The notes beneath the pieces are model-generated. The model was given only the letters and a program-made list of their open reading frames with translations, made no database searches and was not told the origin of the DNA. Made by a program: the position numbers and the translations under genes. 64,000 nt of DNA, taken from Minisyncoccota bacterium (GTDB lineage Bacteria; Patescibacteriota; Minisyncoccia; Phycocordibacterales; UBA9973). This document shows, one piece after another, positions 6,161-60,399 of this stretch. The stretch's first letter is position 1; the number at the start of each line of letters is the position of its first letter. Where the stretch lies: contig JBAZVG010000001.1 of the NCBI GenBank assembly GCA_041661005.1, forward strand, positions 735,515 through 799,514, given 5' to 3'.

Positions 6161-8110
6161 ATGTCATTAAACGATAGGAATAAATTAAACAGGATAGAGG
6201 AGCTCAAAAGCAAACTTTTTAGTAAAAGTTACCAGACGAAAATGGAGCACCGAGACAGATTTACACCCTCGAGAAGGAATGATATTCCAGATGTTTGGGA
6301 AGGCGGGAAAAATATCGGGGCTAATTCTGTTTCAAATCGAGGCAGGTTTTTTATGAAGACCTCTGTATTCAAAAGTTTTTTCCTGTTTTCTTTGGTTTTT
6401 TTTGGTTTAACTCTTATTTATGCTTCTTACGTGTTTTTTGCCGGTGGCAATACTGTTTCGAGCGACAACATAGAGATCTCCATACTCGGAAATAATTTCA
6501 CTGCCGGTGGGGAAGATCTGTCGCTCATTGTGGGCATTGCAAATAAAAATAATTCCTCACTTGATTTAGTTGATCTTGTTGTGGAGTATCCCAAAGGCTC
6601 TTCCAATTCGGAAACGGGTTTGTCAACTGGGACAGAAAGGTTTCGAGAATCCTTGGGGGCGATTCCTGCTGGAGCGGTGCGTAATGAGAATATAAAAGTG
6701 GTGCTTTTTGGCGAACAAGGGGCTGTGCGTCCTATCAAAGTTTCTATTGAATATCGGGTGGAAGGTTCGAATGCTATTTTTGTGAAAGAAAAAAAATATG
6801 AAGTTACGATCAGTTCCACGCCCTTGAATCTTTCCATTGATGCTCCTCTTACAATAAGCCCAAATCAAGACATCACTCTGAACGTGAAGGCGACCCTGAA
6901 CGCTACTTATCCAGTTTCAAAAATACTTCTTAAGTTAGATTATCCGATCGGGTTCCAATTTGTATCATCTGTTCCAGCTCCTTCTCTCGGAAACAATGTC
7001 TGGAGTTTGGGAGATCTGGCTCCCGGCGCAGGGCGTAATATTTCTATAACTGGAAAAATGTTTGATGTTGTCGATGGAGAAGAAAAGACGTTTCACATAT
7101 CGAGCGGATCGCAGTCAGCGGGAGATAAGTCCATGATCGACATGGTTTTCAACTCCTTATCACATACTGTTGAAATAAAAAAACCTTTCATCGAAGCAAA
7201 GCTTTTTGTAAACGGCGCATATCAGAGAGAATATTCCACAAATGCGAAAACTCCATTTCGTGGAGAGATCAGGTGGACAAACAACCTAGACACCAAGGTG
7301 AACGATCTTGAAATCAGAGCGAAGATTTCTGGCAATGCCGTTGATCGTAGAACGATAAACTCTGATCAAGGTTTCTATAATTCATCGACTGACACAATAA
7401 TTTGGGACAAGAATTCCAAGGATGATTTCAGGGAAATAAATCCAGGAGATTCTGGTTCTGTAAGTTTTTCCATCTCTCCACTCTCATTGTTTTCTGTCGC
7501 GAGCGGGATGCTCACCGATCCTATTATCAGCGTCAATATTTCTATTTCTGGCAAACAGTTGTTGGCTGGCTATGCAACTACGGATTTGAATAATTCTGAT
7601 TCTTCGGTTATTAAAATTATTTCTGATGTTGGATTTGCGACTAAGGCGCTTTATTATTCTGGACCTTTTACAAATAATGGCCCTGTTCCTCCTAGAGTTG
7701 AACAGGAAACATCTTATACAATAGTCTGGTCTCTTTCGAATACTGCCAACAATATTTCAAAAGGCGTGGTTCGTTCCAGCATTCCTTCGTGGGTAAAATT
7801 TATGGATTCCGTCTCGCCAACCAGTGAAGACCTAGTTTTCAATTCCTCCACTAGAGAAATCACTTGGAATATAGGCAGGATTCCTAAAGGCACTGGCATC
7901 ACCGAAGCTCTACGCAGTGTCTCCTTTCAGATTGCGATTTCTCCTTCACTTTCTCAGGTCGGAACTATTCCAGTTATCATAAATGACAGTATTTTGACTG
8001 GACATGATGATTTTGCTAATGTAGACGTGAGAGTAAGTAAAAATGCGCTCCGCACGCAATTAGATAACGACCCTCAGTTTCCTCCTGCTGGAGGCACGAT
8101 AGTTGAATAA
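6161..8110 (+). CDS. hypothetical membrane-anchored extracellular protein
   Basis: It has a cytoplasmic N-terminus, a single TM helix (FFLFSLVFFGLTLIYASYVFF), and a ~550-aa Ser/Thr/Asn-rich ectodomain. No catalytic motif was recognised. Confidence 0.5.
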   Translation: MSLNDRNKLNRIEELKSKLFSKSYQTKMEHRDRFTPSRRNDIPDVWEGGKNIGANSVSNRGRFFMKTSVFKSFFLFSLVFFGLTLIYASYVFFAGGNTVSSDNIEISILGNNFTAGGEDLSLIVGIANKNNSSLDLVDLVVEYPKGSSNSETGLSTGTERFRESLGAIPAGAVRNENIKVVLFGEQGAVRPIKVSIEYRVEGSNAIFVKEKKYEVTISSTPLNLSIDAPLTISPNQDITLNVKATLNATYPVSKILLKLDYPIGFQFVSSVPAPSLGNNVWSLGDLAPGAGRNISITGKMFDVVDGEEKTFHISSGSQSAGDKSMIDMVFNSLSHTVEIKKPFIEAKLFVNGAYQREYSTNAKTPFRGEIRWTNNLDTKVNDLEIRAKISGNAVDRRTINSDQGFYNSSTDTIIWDKNSKDDFREINPGDSGSVSFSISPLSLFSVASGMLTDPIISVNISISGKQLLAGYATTDLNNSDSSVIKIISDVGFATKALYYSGPFTNNGPVPPRVEQETSYTIVWSLSNTANNISKGVVRSSIPSWVKFMDSVSPTSEDLVFNSSTREITWNIGRIPKGTGITEALRSVSFQIAISPSLSQVGTIPVIINDSILTGHDDFANVDVRVSKNALRTQLDNDPQFPPAGGTIVE

Positions 8111-16060: not shown

Positions 16061-16075
16061 TTAGAGTGTTCACCC

Positions 16076-16112
16076 CCACACCTTTCACAGAATGAAAGGT
16101 GTGGGGGTTTAC
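16076..16112 (+). terminator. rho-independent terminator after tatD
   Basis: A perfect 13-bp stem 'cccccacaccttt/aaaggtgtggggg' is followed by a T-rich tract. Confidence 0.7.
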
Positions 16113-16134
16113 TTTCTAGGGAGTTTTTGCTAAT

Positions 16135-17932: not shown

Positions 17933-17995
17933 GGGGATATACTAACAAAAAATCTTTAAAACATCAACTTGTAAAATAAAAAGATATTTTTTATT

Positions 17996-19093
17996 TTACG
18001 CTTCTTCCGCAAATTTTTTAGATATCTCTTTTAAGATTTTGTCTGCGATTTTTTTGTCTTCCTTCAAAAACTTACGTGTTGCATCGTATCCTACGCCCAG
18101 TTTCGTTTTTTCTTTCCCTTCACCCTCCTCTGCAAAGAAATATGAATTTCCAGTTTTTTCTATTATTTTGAATTTCTCCCCGAGCGCCATTATCTCGCCC
18201 TCTTTTGAAATGCCTTCATTGTAAATAATGTCAAATTCCGTTTGTTTGAACGGGGCAGCGACTTTATTTTTCACTATTTTTACACGAGTGCGTGAGCCCA
18301 CGACTTCTTCTCCTTTTTTGATTTGGGCGATTTTACGAATATCCAGACGCACAGAAGTGTAGAATTTTAAAGCCTTACCTCCTGGAGTAGTTTCTGGATT
18401 GCCGAACATTACTCCGATTTGCATTCTGATTTGGTTTATAAAGATGACGACAGTTTTACTTCTAGCGACGATGGCTGTGAGCTTGCGAAGCGCCTGAGAC
18501 ATCAAGCGGGCTTGCTTGCCTACATGATATGCGCCCATGTCGCCCTCGATCTCGTCTTTTGGGGTGAGTGCCGCCACAGAGTCGACGACGATGACGTCAA
18601 TCTTGCCTGTTCGCACCAGAGACTCTACGATCTCGAGCGCCTGTTCGCCATTGTCTGGCTGGGATATAAGCAAATTGTTTATATTGACTCCGAGCTTTTT
18701 AGTATATTCTGGATCCATGGCATGTTCAGCATCTATATACGCGCAGACACCTCCGAGTTTTTGCGCTTCCGCTACGATGTGGAGCGAAAGGGTGGTCTTT
18801 CCAGAAGATTCAGGTCCAAATATTTCAATAATTCTTCCTCGCGGTATTCCGCCGACTCCGAGCGCCATATCTAGGCCGATAGAGCCGGTAGGGATGACGT
18901 TGACGTCCACTTTCGGCGAATCGCCAAATTTCATTATTGATCCCTCGCCAAATTTTGTTTGGATTGCTTTTAAAGTGTCTTCTAGCACAGCTATCCCCAA
19001 AGTTTTGTCTTCTTTCTTGTCTTTTTTCTTTTGCATGATTTTCTTTAGAATCAAAAAACTCTTTCTTGGCATAAGTTTCCGCTCAACACGCAT
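17996..19093 (-). CDS. recA: recombinase RecA
   Basis: Walker A '[10 protein letters not shown]', '[11 protein letters not shown]' and loop L2 '[20 protein letters not shown]' are present. The 5' end (first ~13 codons) lies inside an inverted repeat; the true start may be an internal Met. Confidence 0.9.
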
Positions 19094-21747: not shown

Positions 21748-21799
21748 ATAGTTATTCTAACATATTCAACGATTTTTGAAACTCTTCATCGGCACTAAC

Positions 21800-21935
21800 T
21801 CTTCTCCGGTACGGATTTTTTTAAGCTTAAAAAATCCTGCCTAGCCCGTGCTGGTACGGCCAAGGGAAGTTTTCGCGCCGTCGCGCTCAAAACCCCTGCG
21901 AAGAGTTGTGCCTCAACGAGTTTCATAATTTAAAA
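21800..21935 (+). repeat. repeat family X copy 1 (hairpin GGATTTTTT-AAGCTT-AAAAAATCC element)
   Basis: The 'ccggtacggattttttaagcttaaaaaatcctg...aaacccctgcgaagagttgt' motif is shared with the copies at 47221 and 48727. This copy has an internal insertion. Confidence 0.7.
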
Positions 21936-22052
21936 AACTCGTCGCAGGCGTAGTTTACAAGAGACATTGCGCAGGCTGGCGAGCCGAGCATAGCAAATTT
22001 TCAGCAGAAAATTATGCGTGTCGATTGGAAACTTATGCCAAGAAAGAGTTTT
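21935..22052. repeat. right arm of the ~115-bp inverted repeat
   Basis: It is the reverse complement of 19054-19170. It includes a duplicated 'atgcgtgt..cttatgccaagaaagagtttt' recA-like start. Confidence 0.8.
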
Positions 22053-22133
22053 TTAAAAAAATATGCCCTTGCCTTTTTCTACGTCCGACCCACCTAGACT
22101 TGCGTCTACGCGAGGCTGGTATATAATGGACAT

Positions 22134-23012
22134 ATGTTATCCATGAATAAGGACATGAATAAAAACCTCAAAGACTCCGAAGGAAAGCTCTCGGCTTCCT
22201 ACTCGCCTCGCTTACGCTCCGGCGAAGCGGGCGAGGAAGGCAACTATTCCATGTCCGTTATGAGTTATACAAAAACTCAGAAACTCATTACAGCTTTGTA
22301 TATGGTAACGGACGTAATGGACAACGAAGAGCCAATAAGAAATAAATTAAGGACATTGGGGACAGAAATAGTATCAGACTCCTCGACTACGCTCGGGGCA
22401 AACATGTCCATTAGAAGAATAGAGCAAATAATGTCCTTTTTAGATATTGCTTCTGCTATGAATTTTATCTCTGAAATGAATTGTGCTGTTTTGAAAAAAG
22501 AATTTTTTGGACTAAAAATGTCTCTGCAAGAATCAATGCAAGTAAAGCCAGTGTGGCTCGAAGAATTTTTAAATTCTCCTCTTGAGGAGTACTCCGACAT
22601 GGGGTCGGAGGGAGGTGGAAAGAATTTATCCACCCCGGCCTTTGGCCACCCCTCAAGAGGGGAATCAAAACACAAGGGATATTCTAACGGACATCAAACA
22701 AGTACCAGAATTGGTGTCCAAAAGGGAAGTACTCTTATGCAAGCCCTGGGAGAGATAAAAATGTCCGATAGAAGTCCTTTTGATATGAAAAATGATTTTT
22801 ATGTTCTTAAGAAACAAAGACGAGATGAAATAATAAATACTGTAAAGACAAATCCAAATGGTACTACTATAACGGACATTAAAACAAGAGCCACTGGGGT
22901 ACTTGTTTCTTGTAGTGAAAAGACACTGCAGAGAGAATTGGTGTCCATGACGAAAGATGGTGTCCTTAATAAAACAGGGGAGAAACGTTGGACTCGATAT
23001 TTCGTTAAATAA
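22134..23012 (+). CDS. hypothetical protein with a C-terminal winged-helix-like region; carries an in-frame copy of repeat family Y
   Basis: The 292-aa ORF has a C-terminal 'TITDIKTRATGVLVSCSEKTLQRELVSMTKDGVLNKTGEKRWTRYFV' region that resembles a wHTH. The internal GC-rich element at 22575-22662 is translated as NSPLEEYSDMGSEGGGKNLSTPAFGHPSRGES. Confidence 0.45.
   Translation: MLSMNKDMNKNLKDSEGKLSASYSPRLRSGEAGEEGNYSMSVMSYTKTQKLITALYMVTDVMDNEEPIRNKLRTLGTEIVSDSSTTLGANMSIRRIEQIMSFLDIASAMNFISEMNCAVLKKEFFGLKMSLQESMQVKPVWLEEFLNSPLEEYSDMGSEGGGKNLSTPAFGHPSRGESKHKGYSNGHQTSTRIGVQKGSTLMQALGEIKMSDRSPFDMKNDFYVLKKQRRDEIINTVKTNPNGTTITDIKTRATGVLVSCSEKTLQRELVSMTKDGVLNKTGEKRWTRYFVK
22575..22662. repeat. repeat family Y copy A (TIR-bounded ~90-bp GC-rich element, inside CDS)
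   Basis: It has terminal inverted repeats 'ctcctcttgaggagtac ... ccacccctcaagagggg', plus internal ggtgga/tccacc and ccgac/gtcgg hairpins. Confidence 0.75.
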
Positions 23013-23020
23013 TCCCTTAT

Positions 23021-23115
23021 TGAGCCTATTCTCCTCTTGAGGAGTACCCCGACTTTGGTCGGGGAGAGGTGGAATATCCACCCCGTCTCGCAAGCGAGCC
23101 ACCCCTCAAGAGGGG
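23021..23115. repeat. repeat family Y copy B
   Basis: It shares the TIRs and internal hairpins of copy A and lies immediately after the stop of ORF 22134-23012. Confidence 0.75.
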
Positions 23116-23548
23116 GATAAAGGGGGTTGCAATTTGCATTTTAACTCAAATATGATAGTATTGATATGTGGGTTATATCCCGCCGTTGGCGGGATCCTCA
23201 AATTCTATAGGCGCTTTTGCTTCTTAGAATTTGGGAGTTATCCACATAGTATGTTGCTCTACTATGGAGCTATGTATTATAATATTTTAGTTAGTATATT
23301 TGTTTTCTTTTTGTCGTCGCTTTTTATTTCGTCGAAAAAATTCTAAGCGAAGCTTTGAGAAAATAAATGCCCATTGAAAACTGAATAGCTATGTTTTTAA
23401 TGGTTTAGTTTACATCTGTTCGCCATTTGATTATTTGCCACATTATTAATTATTATTATTTATTGGCGAAGAAAAAATAGCGATAGAAAAAAATACGCTT
23501 TTAGTTTTGTCGAAACTTATTAATGGCGTAAAAGTTAGAAAAAAATTT

Positions 23549-25561: not shown

Positions 25562-25689
25562 TAGATGGTTGTTTAGTCTAAATTATAATCTGGTCAATAC
25601 ACCTTAAAAAGTATTACGTTTAATCTCTTTAATCCTTCGATGCCAATATATGGTCACGGATGGAAACAAAAGAGAAAAAACGGTAAACA

Positions 25690-25722
25690 AAAAACCACCC
25701 CGACGGGGGTGGTTTTTTGTTG
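25690..25722 (+). terminator. rho-independent terminator
   Basis: The stem 'ccaccccgacgggggtgg' is followed by 'ttttttgttg'. Confidence 0.75.
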
Positions 25723-47208: not shown

Positions 47209-47220
47209 TTTAGGTATAAC

Positions 47221-47305
47221 TTTTTTCCGGTACGGATTTTTTGAAGCTTAAAAAATCCTGAAGTTCTCGGCTCGTCAGCCTCGAAACCCCTACAAAAAGT
47301 TTACC
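47221..47305 (+). repeat. repeat family X copy 2
   Basis: It is near-identical to copy 3 at 48727-48815. Confidence 0.8.
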
Positions 47306-47332
47306 TCAATTAATTTCTTTATTTTAAATTAT

Positions 47333-47848
47333 ATGAAAATTGTAATTATTGGCGCTCAAGGTGTAGGTAAAACTACTTTAGCCAAACAAATTAATAAGCA
47401 TTACCCTGATTTTAAAATCTTGCCCGAAGCGGCACGACTGGCCTTGGAGGCAGGGTATAAACTTGACCAAACGGCAACAATAGAGACAGAACACTGGTTA
47501 ATTGCGAAGCAAATTGAGTTAGAAAGTGGAGAGGGTAAATGGGTGGCTGACCGTTCCTGCATAGATTTGCTCGCATATATACATCATTTATTTTCCGAGG
47601 AATCGGCTCTGATTGAATTTGCTACTAAAACCTTAGTGCCAAGATTTGATAAATATGATTTAGTTTTATATTTACCTAGTGGAGAATTTGATATTGAAGA
47701 TGATGGTGTGCGTTCAACTGATATTGAATTTCAACGAGCTATAGACGAGCGTTTTAAGGATGTTCTCAAAAAACACAAAATTCCATTTGTTAAGATAGTT
47801 GGTTCACCAGGAGAACGGTTAGCCAGGGTTAAAGATTTGCTTGCTTGA
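47333..47848 (+). CDS. P-loop NTPase (AAA_28/NadR-like kinase domain)
   Basis: Walker A 'IGAQGVGKTTLAKQ' is present. The small size is similar to the NadR ribosylnicotinamide kinase domain. Confidence 0.45.
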   Translation: MKIVIIGAQGVGKTTLAKQINKHYPDFKILPEAARLALEAGYKLDQTATIETEHWLIAKQIELESGEGKWVADRSCIDLLAYIHHLFSEESALIEFATKTLVPRFDKYDLVLYLPSGEFDIEDDGVRSTDIEFQRAIDERFKDVLKKHKIPFVKIVGSPGERLARVKDLLA

Positions 47849-47882
47849 CTTTAAAAATTACTTTGTATATACTTTAGGTATT

Positions 47883-48152
47883 ATGAAAACATCAGCATTA
47901 AGCATTAAAATAGATCCAAAAGTAAAAAAGGGAGCCCAGAAAGTTGCCGATGAACTTGGTTTTTCTCTTTCTGCGATAGTCAATGCTTCTTTGAAAAATC
48001 TAATGCGAAGTAAAACTGTTTCATACTCTGTGCTCGAACCTTCCCCGATGCTGAAACACGCTATTAGATCCGCTCGTCAAGACAGGGTGCAAGGTAAATC
48101 TTACGGACCTTTTTCCCTTAAGGATTCTATTGCTTTCTTGAAGTCAAAATAA
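47883..48152 (+). CDS. dinJ: DinJ/RelB-family antitoxin
   Basis: It shows the ribbon-helix-helix-like pattern 'LSIKIDPKVKKGAQKVADELGFSLSAIVNASLKNLM'. It lies immediately upstream of the toxin gene. Confidence 0.55.
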   Translation: MKTSALSIKIDPKVKKGAQKVADELGFSLSAIVNASLKNLMRSKTVSYSVLEPSPMLKHAIRSARQDRVQGKSYGPFSLKDSIAFLKSK

Positions 48153-48156
48153 ACTA

Positions 48157-48417
48157 ATGCACTTTAGTTACAGTAAAAAGTTCATCAAGCAGTATACTAA
48201 AAAGTCTATCGACATTAAGAATAAATTTATTGAACGTCAGACCTTACTAGCTACTGATTTTTTTAGTCCGATTCTTAATAATCATAAATTAACCGGAGAA
48301 TATGAAGGTTGTAAAAGTATAAACATAACGGGCGACATACGCGCCGTCTTTGAAGAGATTTCTGAATACCATGTTGAATTCGTTGCTATCGGCACACACA
48401 GTGAACTTTATTCTTAG
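48157..48417 (+). CDS. yafQ: YafQ/RelE-family mRNA interferase toxin
   Basis: 'HKLTGEYEGCKSINITGDIRAVFE.....V.FVAIGTHSELY' matches the YafQ C-terminus. Confidence 0.6.
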   Translation: MHFSYSKKFIKQYTKKSIDIKNKFIERQTLLATDFFSPILNNHKLTGEYEGCKSINITGDIRAVFEEISEYHVEFVAIGTHSELYS

Positions 48418-48496: not shown

Positions 48497-48642
48497 AATA
48501 TATCAAGAGTGGCGACGATCCTCCTTCGTAAAACTACGGACGGAGAACGAGAATTGGCTCGTATGACTCGCCCAGCAACCTTTTTAAACAAGGTGCTAAA
48601 TCCAACCAAGTGCTGATGAATCAGCACGAGGAAAGATAAGTA
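48497..48642 (+). ncRNA. candidate SAM-I (S-box) riboswitch in the metK leader
   Basis: Ordered consensus blocks are present: 'TATCAAGAG.GGC', 'CAGCAACC', 'GGTGCTAAATCC', a P4-like hairpin gtgctga/tcagcac, then 'GAAAGATAAG' closing P1 against the 5' 'CTTATC'-like strand. Confidence 0.55.
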
Positions 48643-48663
48643 TGTCTAGTCCACATAAAATCT

Positions 48664-48692
48664 TTCCTCATTATTTGAGGAATTTTTTGTTT
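48664..48692 (+). terminator. putative riboswitch expression-platform terminator
   Basis: The stem ttcctca/tgaggaa is followed by 'attttttgtttt'. Confidence 0.5.
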
Positions 48693-48726
48693 TAATGGTA
48701 GATTACGAAATTCACAAAAATACGAA

Positions 48727-48815
48727 CTTTTTTTCGGTACGGATTTTTTGAAGCTTAAAAAATCCTGAAGTTCTCGGCTCGTCAGCCTCGAAACCCCTTC
48801 AAAAAGTTGTATTTT
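48727..48815 (+). repeat. repeat family X copy 3 (between riboswitch and metK start)
   Basis: The sequence is 'cggtacggattttttgaagcttaaaaaatcctgaagttctcggctcgtcagcctcgaaaccccttcaaaaagttg'. Confidence 0.8.
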
Positions 48816-48846
48816 AGCGAATTTCGTAATTCACAGAGTAAAATAT

Positions 48847-50826: not shown

Positions 50827-50852
50827 ATAATAACTTCTTGACACAGGATTAT

Positions 50853-50937
50853 TCTCCTCTTGAGGAGTACCCTTTAGGGGGAGGTGGATTGAATTTATCC
50901 ACCCCGTCTCGCAAGCGAGCCACCCCTCAAGAGGGGA
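50853..50937. repeat. repeat family Y copy C
   Basis: It has the same TIRs and internal hairpins as copies A and B and lies directly after the stop of ORF 49972-50826. Confidence 0.75.
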
Positions 50938-50979
50938 ATTATGGTTGCAAAATCTAAGGATAAGTTATAAAATAGACGT

Positions 50980-54752: not shown

Positions 54753-55289
54753 TAAAATTATAAATTTATTTTTGTAGTTTTGACAGTTTGAACCCTCAGA
54801 GGAAAGTTTTGAACTTATGTTATAAAAATTAGTGAGGAGTAAAACAAAATTTATTTTTATTTTGTCCGAGCGAAATTTTTATATGAAATGTTTACATTTC
54901 ATATTTAAAATTGTTTTGTTTATGAAATTGAAAGATAGAACCAATCAAATCACGGCGGTCGCATAAAGTAATTTATGTAGATCAAGCTAATGAAATCGGT
55001 GAAGTCCACATGAAAGGGATAATACCGAGGGGTTTATTGTGTGCTAGTTAGTGGGGGAATATCATAGAAGACTCCAACCAAGGAAGTCTCGAGAACGACA
55101 CACTGTTCCGTGCCAAATCCTAGGAATGTACAGAGTACATGGAGCGCCTACCACTGTTGGTGACGATGCGAAAGCGTGTCGTCACCTCCACTAATCAGCA
55201 CATAATAAATTTCCGTAGAGACTAACAATTAGCCATCCTAGAATGGATGAAGATATAGTCCAATGCACAAAGTAATTTGTGATATCATG
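54753..55289 (+). other. intron 1 in 23S rRNA (ORF-less, ~537 nt) at the GAACGU|CGUGAGACAG site of domain V
   Basis: The flanking exons join to the conserved 'gaccgt|cgtgagacagg'. The upstream exon ends in U and the insert ends in G (group I-like). The 3' terminal ~45 nt are similar to those of intron 2. Confidence 0.6.
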
Positions 55290-55352
55290 CGTGAGACAGG
55301 TTGGTCTCCTATCTACTGCACTCGTTGATTCTTGAAAAGATTTGCGCTTAGT

Positions 55353-56176
55353 AAACCCGCAAGGGTTATTGCTACTTCCTGTAGAAATACAGGATGACAA
55401 TGTGGCTAATAACGGTGGAGTCTTCATCTATGTTTCTAGTCCGATGAAAAATAATATCGAACGGTCTTTGGTGTTATGGTTCGCTTGAGGACCAGAAATG
55501 TGATAAGATAATACCGTGGGAAGTCAATCTAAAATCAAATTAGCGTATATTGCCGGTTTTCTTGATGGAGATGGTAGTCTGATGCTTCAGCTTAAAAAGC
55601 GAAGCGATAGTAAACGAGCAATTCGTTTTATGACTACAATTTGTTTTTATCAAGACACTAGGCATGAAAAAACTTTGTATTGGATAAAAGAAGTTTTAGG
55701 TATCGGTTATATTTCCCATAGAAATGATGGAATGACTGAACTGCGAATAAATGGTTATAAACAAATAAGAGATATTCTTACAAGTTTGTTGCCATATATT
55801 CAATTCAAAAAACTTCAAGCTTATGCGCTTTTACAAGCATGTAAGGTGTTATCTGAAACAAAGTTCAGTAAGCTAACAAAAAGGCAACTATTTAAACTTG
55901 TCGATCTAATTTTAGTTATTCAAAGTGAGAACTATGTGACTAAAAAGAAGAAAACAATAGAAGAGTTGCATAAAGTTTTAGGTTTGACCCCGTAACGACT
56001 TATCTCTGACATGTGTCAGAGTGGACTTGCATGACGCTGGAAAGTTTCTTTCAGAAATTTTTTTTGAGAAACAGGCTTATGCTTGTAATACGCCAACATC
56101 CTCCTTCAGCATTATTTATTTTGTTGAAAAGGATGAAGATATAGTCTGCACTCCTAGAAATAGGGGATATAATGTG
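55353..56176 (+). mobile_element. intron 2 in 23S rRNA (~824 nt) inserted in the sarcin-ricin loop region (CUAGU|ACGAGAGGACC) and encoding a LAGLIDADG endonuclease
   Basis: The exons join to 'cttagt|acgagaggaccgg'. The upstream exon ends in U and the insert ends in G. It shares the 3' block 'ggatgaagatatagtc...gatata.atg' with intron 1. Confidence 0.6.
55516..55995 (+). CDS. LAGLIDADG homing endonuclease (single-motif, GTG start)
   Basis: 'KLAYIAGFLDGDGSL' is the LAGLIDADG motif. The 159-aa ORF lies inside the 23S insert. Confidence 0.85.
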   Translation: MGSQSKIKLAYIAGFLDGDGSLMLQLKKRSDSKRAIRFMTTICFYQDTRHEKTLYWIKEVLGIGYISHRNDGMTELRINGYKQIRDILTSLLPYIQFKKLQAYALLQACKVLSETKFSKLTKRQLFKLVDLILVIQSENYVTKKKKTIEELHKVLGLTP

Positions 56177-56457
56177 ACGAGAGGACCGGCGTGAACTGAC
56201 CTCTGGTGTACGAGCTGTCCTGCCAAGGGCACTGCTCGGTAACTATGTCGGGATTGGATAACCTCTGAAAGCATCTAAGAGGGAAGCCAGCTTTAAGATT
56301 AGGAATCGTTAAGAACCGTGAGAGATGATCACGTTGATAGGCTTTAAGTGTAAGGCGAGTAATCGCTTGAGCTGAGAAGTACTAATGTTTCGATTCCTGT
56401 TAAGAAATTTGGAAACCACAACTTGCCTCGCCGAAACCTCGGTGTAGGCGGGAAAAA

Positions 56458-56630
56458 TTGAAAACTGAGTATTGGGAGTGTTTGTGTATTAATGCGAGCT
56501 GTATTAAAGCTTTAAGGACGTGATCCTGCAATACACTGCACCCCCATTATGCTCTTTTTGCACTTTTGTAGCGCAAATATCGATCCGGTTTCAGCTGAAT
56601 TTCTCACTGAAACCCAATACTCAGTTTTCA
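56458..56630. repeat. ITS element bounded by 19-bp perfect inverted repeats
   Basis: 'ttgaaaactgagtattggg' at 56458-56476 is the reverse complement of 'cccaatactcagttttcaa' at 56612-56630. It lies between 23S and 5S. Confidence 0.7.
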
Positions 56631-56650
56631 ATGATTTTAGTGAGGATGTT

Positions 56651-56771
<121 letters not shown>

Positions 56772-60355: not shown

Positions 60356-60399
60356 ATACACAGGCGTTGCCTAGGTATCCTAGGCAACGCCTGTGTATA
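60356..60399. promoter_or_regulatory. perfect 20-bp inverted repeat (3-nt spacer) between rodA and folD
   Basis: The sequence is 'atacacaggcgttgcctagg tat cctaggcaacgcctgtgtat'. It is GC-rich in AT-rich surroundings. Confidence 0.6.

Follow-up and report, generated by a model that had tools for sequence, protein, structure and literature searches.

A foldback DNA repeat with a conserved core, probably MITE-like, dispersed between genes of Paceibacteria and Nomurabacteria

Three copies of one sequence lie on the + strand of a 64,000-nucleotide (nt) stretch of a Minisyncoccota bacterium genome (contig JBAZVG010000001.1, positions 735,515 to 799,514; this whole stretch is called the window here), upstream of ORF (open reading frame) 22134, an ATPase gene and metK. 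An earlier note on this DNA left three options for the sequence, here named family X: a conserved cis-regulatory RNA, a binding site for a regulator, or a dispersed element like the repetitive extragenic palindromic (REP) sequences. Which of these is it? Only the third survives, since X sites are present, absent or inverted among orthologues. X is probably a non-autonomous, non-coding foldback DNA element of Paceibacteria/Nomurabacteria that resembles MITEs (transposable elements of the miniature inverted-repeat type) and has its nearest counterparts in Correia elements and REPINs. It is previously undescribed, and the literature searched held no account of such elements in Patescibacteria; small repeats of this general kind are known elsewhere.

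The three copies have in common a + strand 32-mer, GGTACGGATTTTTTNAAGCTTAAAAAATCCTG, at positions 21808, 47229 and 48736 (100 shuffles gave an expectation of 0). As first reported, copies 2 and 3 are near-identical, with 98% identity across 84 nt (47218-47301 vs 48725-48808), and copy 1 does contain an internal insertion, 27 nt long and placed after TCCTG, together with several other differences from copies 2 and 3. The core measures 64 nt in copies 2 and 3 and 91 nt in copy 1. All three lie upstream of + strand start codons; the distances from core to start, 41, 48 and, for copy 1, 236 nt, extend beyond the 20-200 nt first given. Likewise, the original size of ~90 bp holds for the shared part and not for the full extent. 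Every copy is the centre of a far longer hairpin, overlooked in the note, whose flanks are complementary within a copy and unrelated between copies (48702-48731/48801-48830, 47202-47224/47294-47316 and ~21785-21806/21898-21930), and the real units, arms included, are ~115-145 nt.

The shared part has an inner A/T stem, AACTTTTT/AAAAAGTT, and a core in which a CGGTAC junction strand is followed by hairpin P2, TGAAG, hairpin P3 and ACCCCT. P2, the hairpin already noted, is real: GGATTTTTT and AAAAAATCC pair around a GAAGCTT loop that contains AAGCTT. P3 consists of TTC-tc-GGCT, a CGTC loop and AGCC-tc-GAA. The predicted fold of the single-stranded unit is a three-way junction, Y- or T-shaped, formed by the long stem and the two hairpins. 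In copy 1, the inner stem (AACTCTTC/GAAGAGTT) and P3 (GCGC/GCGC) both show compensatory changes with respect to copies 2 and 3, and an extra hairpin (21840-21866) lies between P2 and P3; this four-way variant is also present at loci L067 and L082. Each of the three + strand frames of the core is interrupted by a stop codon (TAA, TGA, TGA); on the - strand, two frames are open. Folds of the - strand have a mean energy of -47.1 kcal/mol, compared with -44.2 for the + strand, a gain in stability of ~3 kcal/mol.

Copy 3 as a full inserted unit, with outer arms, inner stem and core, occupies 48696-48838 of the + strand within the metK 5' untranslated region (UTR), and folds as a single hairpin of -44 kcal/mol (z = -6.6). 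Its core (48735-48798) is found both by a search pattern and by a covariance model (105.8 bits), which are described below. The 5' arm (48699-48734), whose terminus GGTAGATTACGAAATTC is a degenerate TGTGAATTACGAAACTC, pairs with the 3' arm (48799-48835), which ends in GCGAATTTCGTAATTCACA and matches the T3 terminus with 1 mismatch at 48821-48835. The stem extends over 48699-48835, and the arms contain inverted repeat I2 (30 nt, 83% complementary). Copy 2 (47209-47332, + strand; core 47228-47291) scores 102.9 bits, has arms that correspond to inverted repeat I10, and takes up the space from the ahcY stop codon to the start of the AAA_28 ATPase gene. Copy 1 (21785-21930, + strand; core 21807-21897, 50.4 bits) lies between ftsK on the - strand and ORF 22134 on the + strand.

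How far does the family extend? A pattern built from the unpaired segments and run on species-representative genomes matches at least 118 loci. At least ~94 of these are genuine, with lengths of 63-66 nt, or 91 nt when the copy-1-type insertion is present. Among the matches listed, all genuine loci belong to metagenome-assembled genomes (MAGs) of Patescibacteria (Nomurabacteria, Paceibacterota and similar), one of them under a mis-binned "Burkholderiales" label, and the matches in Actinobacteria and other phyla, which have odd lengths and high GC, are due to chance. The core total is at least ~130 copies in more than 40 Patescibacteria (Paceibacteria/Nomurabacteria) genomes, with several per genome: 3 in the 64 kb of the window and at least 7 in some MAGs. 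The covariance model, built from 51 distinct cores, detects the three copies and no others in the window. On 625 kb of loci its scores are bimodal, with ~100 copies at 61 bits or above and five weak matches; the latter are either members of a sister family, described below, or X variants that carry extra hairpins within the loop of P2 or of P3 or in the stretch that separates these two hairpins. A scan of a viral collection gave one match to X, attributable to chance, and an exact 84-mer scan of metagenomes gave none. Cores differ about as much within genomes as between them (7.71 vs 7.99 differences, permutation p = 0.29), ruling out concerted evolution of cores within genomes. The same set of discrete P3 variants coexists in each genome, and the variants often differ at orthologous sites.

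The structure, core hairpins and arms alike, is strongly supported by covariation, the check that had been proposed for it. For P2 and P3, 88% of alignment cells are paired, nine pairs have changed on both sides (105 cells), none of 500 shuffles reaches the observed score, and slid controls collapse. The unpaired core positions are the most conserved part (at least 95%; consensus CGGTACGGAtTTTTtgAAGcTTaAAAAaTCCTGAAnTTnncnnnnCGnCnnncncnAAACCCCT), and the CTCG/CTCG internal loop of P3, a tandem G·A when read on the - strand, is kept in two different registers. Inverted arms of 22-40 bp, typically 22-28 bp, are present in every copy, and cognate flanks form 31.6 pairs on average compared with 12.9 for swapped flanks. 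The arm positions comprise 2197 Watson-Crick pairs, 28 G/T, 51 A/C and 171 other mismatches; P2 has 2 G/T and 0 A/C, and P3 has 6 of each. Wobble pairs are not enriched on either strand. Because selection on a single RNA strand should give an excess of G·U, this points to pairing at the DNA level rather than one-strand RNA selection. The orthologous loci L132 and L136, with flanks that are 83% identical, have identical 64-nt cores and arms that differ by three fully compensated double substitutions in ~15 bp. Pairing would be upheld at the DNA level, either through folding as single-stranded DNA (ssDNA) or as a cruciform, or because one arm serves as the template for its partner. Wobble-free, compensated arms around a conserved centre make X a test case for telling DNA-templated palindrome upkeep from RNA selection when covariation is found.

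X spreads as DNA to intergenic sites that are unrelated, shows gain and loss at orthologous ones, and can undergo inversion in place. Intergenic placement applies to 80 of 83 scorable copies, next to unrelated housekeeping genes such as efp, rplJ, rpsI, yidC, gap and a dnaE-like gene. At L120, L122 and L126, where MetK is 88-92% identical to that of the window, the metK leader is empty: the same riboswitch and terminator are present, and 16-25 nt lie between the terminator and the ATG. The window leader has ~143 extra nt (48696-48838), arms included, and despite copy 3 the last 8 nt before the metK ATG are unchanged from relatives. At the junction that contains copy 2, the ahcY and ATPase genes abut or overlap in L124 and L126 (TGAtATG), and the copy separates genes that are translationally coupled in these relatives; L120 has an X copy at this junction, as in the window, with unrelated arms. 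The site orthologous to that of copy 1 is occupied in L050 and occupied by an inverted copy in L106. Overall, 56 orthologous junctions are occupied and 52 apparently empty, the latter including a few false empties with variant cores. At the L078 site one genome has X and four lack it, and positions 17938-18002 of the window look like what a deletion has left of a copy that L099 retains.

Inversion is common among diverged sites. Orthologous pairs defined by flanking proteins are flipped in 10 of 25 cases, and diverged pairs defined by flank DNA in 16 of 63. All 15 locus pairs with 100% identical flanks have the same orientation, so that rapid, phase-variation-like switching is not supported. 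The copies in L050 and L106 have a distinctive arm sequence in common that occurs in no other copy examined. Their flanks align one way and their core, inner arms and arm bulge align the other; thus, the same insertion has been inverted in place, probably by recombination or template switching between the arms.

What kind of element would behave in this way? Like MITEs, which measure less than ~300 bp, X is small (115-145 bp), non-coding, multi-copy and dispersed, with terminal inverted repeats and insertion polymorphism. The arm subfamily TGTGAATTACGAAACTC...GAGTTTCGTAATTCACA is found at non-orthologous sites, including two in one MAG (L015, L115) and window copy 3, and the arm of copy 3 is homologous to the arms of L015, L115, L139 and L153, again at non-orthologous sites. 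One arm subfamily has defined termini, TGTGAATTACGAAAC...GTTTCGTAATTCACA, of the TGTG...CACA type. Direct repeats of 6 bp (TTTGTA in L015, TAATAA in L153, TAAGCA in L139) lie at the same 1-nt offset from TGTG...CAC(A/G) ends, for which the chance is 1.7% per site. Mobilization would occur in trans, and for the TGTG...CACA subfamily the likely agent would be a DDE-type transposase that makes 6-bp target duplications.

Several observations weigh against a MITE-like identity. Target duplications are demonstrable in one arm subfamily only, and not at window copy 3; a generic scan for them in all subfamilies gives 17, which is not above the control (12.7 +/- 2.1). No gene-sized pair of TGTG...CACA ends that could enclose a transposase occurs in the ~1 Mb examined, and the transposase genes that do occur near X, discussed below, are bracketed by palindromes of their own. 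Copies 2 and 3 have identical 84-nt centres within unrelated outer arms; therefore, simple transposition of the whole unit is insufficient. The termini are the least conserved part and the centre the most conserved, the opposite of a classical MITE. There is almost no tail of decayed copies in the 625 kb, and orthologous cores can be identical where the flanks are only ~83% identical; this looks more like purifying selection on every resident copy, that is, a host-level function, than a purely selfish repeat.

Comparison with known repeats places X near two families. The Correia elements of Neisseria (CREE/NEMIS), like X, are non-coding, multi-copy, intergenic sequences of ~100-155 bp with inverted repeats around a conserved core. 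Their presence varies between strains and they are co-transcribed with neighbouring genes as long hairpins, as is proposed for X (PMC2649163, PMC2229807). However, the inverted repeats of CREE are conserved and defining and the target duplication is TA, whereas the X arms are hypervariable and its core is conserved; X also has a covariation-supported three-way junction and a host in a different phylum. REPINs resemble X as long imperfect hairpins that last at orthologous positions, number tens per genome and lie between genes near gene ends, and genes like those for their REP-associated tyrosine transposases (RAYTs) exist in the clade that carries X (PMC3116915, PMC3337134, 10.1101/2021.07.10.451892). 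In REPINs, however, conservation lies in the arms (REP sequences) and variation in the spacer, the reverse of X, and one X subfamily has TG...CA ends and 6-bp duplications. ERIC/IRU, BOX, RUP and MIRU are also small, structured, dispersed repeats, often co-transcribed; BOX has a modular build, and a copy of MIRU can fit between a stop and a start codon (PMC2229807, PMC3049150, PMC10969869). None has sequence similarity to X, and in contrast to them X sets a deeply conserved junction on locus-specific arms, with a backbone that it has in common with a second family, Z. X is distinctive in its conserved centre and variable ends, its covariation-supported junction, the backbone shared with Z and the documented inversion in place. 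The inverted terminal repeats of parvoviruses such as adeno-associated virus (AAV) form a stem with two small hairpins, a T- or Y-shaped three-way junction, and occur in flip and flop orientations. The likeness of X to these and to foldback transposons is a structural and mechanistic analogy only, X being chromosomal and internal and not the terminus of a replicon.

In the window, copies 2 and 3 are insertions that would be co-transcribed, as stable hairpins, with the ahcY-ATPase operon and the metK 5' UTR, respectively. They would act as passengers or, at most, modulators, and not as dedicated regulators. As had been stated, copy 3 lies between the riboswitch terminator (48664-48682 and its T-run) and the metK ATG (48847). 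The SAM-I (S-adenosylmethionine) riboswitch (48497-48692 with terminator, + strand; aptamer 48497-48642) lies upstream of and outside the element. The window aptamer scores 32 bits against a gathering score of 44, which the homologue of a relative passes (45 bits); it carries a 55-nt insertion at a place that is 19 nt long in the Rfam model. No promoter-like site was found between this terminator and the ATG, so copy 3, transcribed within the metK 5' UTR, must permit read-through. Copy 1 occupies a divergent gap, in which a conserved TATAAT (22122-22127) lies 6 nt before the ATG of ORF 22134; the TTGCGT-16 nt-TATAAT promoter (window 22100-22136) is also found in L050 and L106. With TATAAT so close to the ATG, ORF 22134 is probably leaderless, which leaves copy 1 outside its transcript. 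L124 is without a riboswitch, and there ahcY, the ATPase gene and metK are packed into a tight operon whose gap is 23 nt (L124:3978-4001).

The alternative that survives best, though it is held only tentatively, is that X is a host-domesticated structured module, in which a protein-binding core at gene ends does the work, either in transcripts as RNA or as an ssDNA or cruciform fold, and the arms are a mere carrier. Proposed uses are stabilization or processing of RNA 3' ends, insulation of operons, or a site for a nucleoid or replication factor. The unpaired core is near-invariant across more than 40 genomes, although flanking coding DNA is ~75-83% identical; scores are bimodal with hardly any decayed copies; extra hairpins are tolerated at peripheral positions only; and a sister family has a like layout. 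Gene context also favours this alternative: gaps with a gene 3' end hold 73 of the 83 copies (38 co-directional sense, 15 co-directional antisense and 20 convergent, with 10 more in divergent gaps), the core typically lies 9-38 nt from the stop codon, and orientation is biased 72:28. The next start is usually ~40 nt away from the core, so that the spacer is filled by the unit. However, presence and absence vary freely at orthologous sites, even among close relatives, and both orientations persist with cores equally intact. A U-tract follows just 24% of co-directional copies, copy 3 is in a 5' UTR and copy 2 inside an operon, where a terminator would be harmful, and there is no RNA-like enrichment of wobble pairs. 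Whether X is a MITE-like element or a host module, the near-invariant junction and loops, the restriction of insertions to peripheral positions and the scarcity of decayed copies suggest that some protein reads the folded core. This sequence-based argument implies a predicted, sequence-specific recognition of that core, which would serve either the element or the host.

A more speculative possibility takes the core rather than the unit as the entity that spreads. The sister family (L022:7108-7258, L042:1580-1731 on the - strand, L041:2472-2620) combines long arms that are specific to each locus with one A/T hairpin and one CTCGnnn-CGTC-nnnCTC hairpin, in the layout of X with other junction sequences (CACGGATA..., ...CGTAGCC). 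Family Z is a structured foldback repeat of ~135 nt, AAACTCGTCGCAGGCGTA...TATGCCAAGAAAGAGTTT, which in the window (21927-22062, + strand) directly abuts X copy 1 and has other copies at L060:1537-1675, L134:8986-9124 and L113:~6377-6500. The termini of Z in other genomes, TGTGAATTAYGAAAC...GTTTCRTAATTCACA, are those of long-arm X copies, and one backbone may thus carry alternative structured cores, X or Z. The locus L082:7227-7361, orthologous to the X site of L026 and L095, has similar long A/T arms and an unrelated GC-rich core, gagccttcgccctcggggacataagggcaggggaccaacacgactc. The cores of X, its sister and Z could represent a new class of module, a folded nucleic-acid single strand with a three-way junction that a protein reads sequence-specifically, which moves or converts independently of the arms, homes to the apexes of intergenic palindromes and toggles in orientation. 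Identical centres within unrelated arms, different cores within identical termini, discrete P3 alleles in common among genomes, and near-invariant unpaired nucleotides with no decayed tail are compatible with such a module and are unexplained by plain MITE biology. If true, it would constitute a portable, invertible gene-end or insulator signal in the reduced genomes of the candidate phyla radiation (CPR).

It is unlikely that X is an ssDNA-hairpin element of the REP/REPIN or IS200/IS605-PATE (palindrome-associated transposable element) type, whose folded core would be read on the lagging-strand template by a RAYT-like Y1 HUH transposase. Leads to such enzymes came from consensus probes and were confirmed by Pfam and NCBIfam. 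RAYT-like genes occur in three element-bearing genomes (L075:6021-6665 on the - strand, L106:7215-7886 on the + strand and L059:~7769-7999); their products pass the Pfam PF01797 (Y1_Tnp) cut-off, and their best NCBIfam match is REP_Tyr_transpos, under the cut-off of that model. The G-rich strand carries the + strand of X at 62 of the 86 loci (p = 5e-5), and at 22 of the 29 whose gap is convergent or divergent. A strand bias of this kind is known for IS200/IS605 elements. Structure restricted to Watson-Crick pairs and long persistence at orthologous sites, as for REPINs (10.1101/2021.07.10.451892; PMC3116915), would also fit. However, the RAYT genes are flanked by private perfect palindromes (CCCCATAGGATTATCCTATGGGG in L075, ACTAGCAAGGACnGTCCTTGCTAGT in L106) and not by X, no RAYT gene was found in the window, and the variable X arms differ from the conserved arms of REP/REPIN-RAYT systems. 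P2 does not resemble P3, in contrast to the paired hairpins of REP or of left and right ends, a GTAG-type motif is absent, and 6-bp duplications with TG...CA ends, as in one X subfamily, are not products of Y1 transposition. The bias toward the G-rich strand is confounded with regional gene orientation, and it could reflect either the replication strand or the majority direction of transcription in the region.

Could X instead be a family of intrinsic, possibly bidirectional, terminators with an elaborate hairpin? Stable, long hairpins right after stop codons would suit this role, as would a foot in which A often prevails on the 5' side and T on the 3' side (52% A and 58% T, respectively, over the 5 outermost nt of each arm) and a mild excess of convergent over divergent gaps (20 vs 10, p = 0.10). 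This identity is nevertheless improbable. A U-tract at the 3' foot (at least 6 T in 8 nt) is present in only 24% of co-directional and 45% of convergent copies, a terminator scan made no call at any of the three window copies, and the invariant junction sequence would be left unexplained. Moreover, copy 3 lies between a riboswitch and its gene, copy 2 within an operon, and ten copies are in divergent promoter regions.

Least credible is the idea with which the locus began, that X is a cis-regulatory leader RNA or a regulator binding site for metK, the ATPase gene and ORF 22134: the three window copies are all on the + strand upstream of + strand genes, two flank SAM-cycle genes and the structure is strongly supported, but the neighbours of the at least ~130 copies are unrelated, both orientations occur and orthologous sites flip, many copies are convergent (20) or antisense (15) with no consistent sense 5' UTR placement before related genes, the metK of close relatives has the same riboswitch without the element, and copy 1 precedes the promoter of a gene that is probably leaderless. 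The refutation tests set in the note point two ways: covariation favours the structure, and position and orientation speak against a leader. As a general function a leader role is refuted, but copy 3 may locally affect the translation or expression of metK.

Other identities were tried and rejected. A search of Rfam 15 with both strands, at gathering thresholds and with E up to 10, gave only spurious miRNA-like matches to long hairpins. A motif that by eye resembles the hammerhead (CUGA.../GAAAC) deviates at essential positions (G8 often A, A9 = U) and has no Rfam ribozyme match. A tRNA-like reading fails in that ARAGORN finds neither a tRNA nor a tmRNA in the window. As to integron attC sites (R''/R' boxes RYYYAAC/GTTRRRY), AAC...GTT is present at the inner stem of some copies only, the copies are dispersed rather than in a cassette array, and the outer stems are not conserved. 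A link to restriction-modification was dismissed because neither AAGCTT nor GTAC is avoided elsewhere in the window (28 vs 39 expected and 54 vs 90, respectively).

The genomes of Patescibacteria are tiny and dense and repeats are expected to be purged from them, yet several elaborate structured families are kept in the intergenic spacers of many genera of this lineage. Recognizing X guards against its annotation as a riboswitch-associated leader or small RNA, and provides a marker of strain-level insertion and inversion polymorphism. X also poses the question of which protein reads a near-invariant three-way junction whose stems vary freely.

Other features of the window bear mention. The AAA_28 ATPase gene and the SAM riboswitch are separated by a RelB-like/YafQ toxin-antitoxin pair (47841-48417), with X copies 2 and 3 on either side of it. 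The pair is missing from the syntenic region of L120, L124 and L126 and is thus a lineage-specific insertion. Family Y is a third structured repeat, GC-rich, at 22568-22670, 23027-23119 and 50848-50942. Its stem, TTCTCCTCTTGAGG/CCTCAAGAGGGGAA, closes three small hairpins in a predicted four-way junction (-49 to -57 kcal/mol), and one copy lies inside the mechanically called ORF 22134-23012. A 1.8-kb gap (54824-56663) separates the 23S rRNA end from the 5S rRNA, and a perfect 20-nt inverted repeat (56457-56476/56613-56632) is found just upstream of the 5S gene. Strong palindromes are present at 60356-60398, 16062-16118 and 25686-25721; their types are a perfect 20-bp hairpin (ATACACAGGCGTTGCCTAGG...), a 26-bp GC-rich hairpin and a classic bidirectional terminator (AACAAAAAACCACCCC/GGGGTGGTTTTTTGTT).

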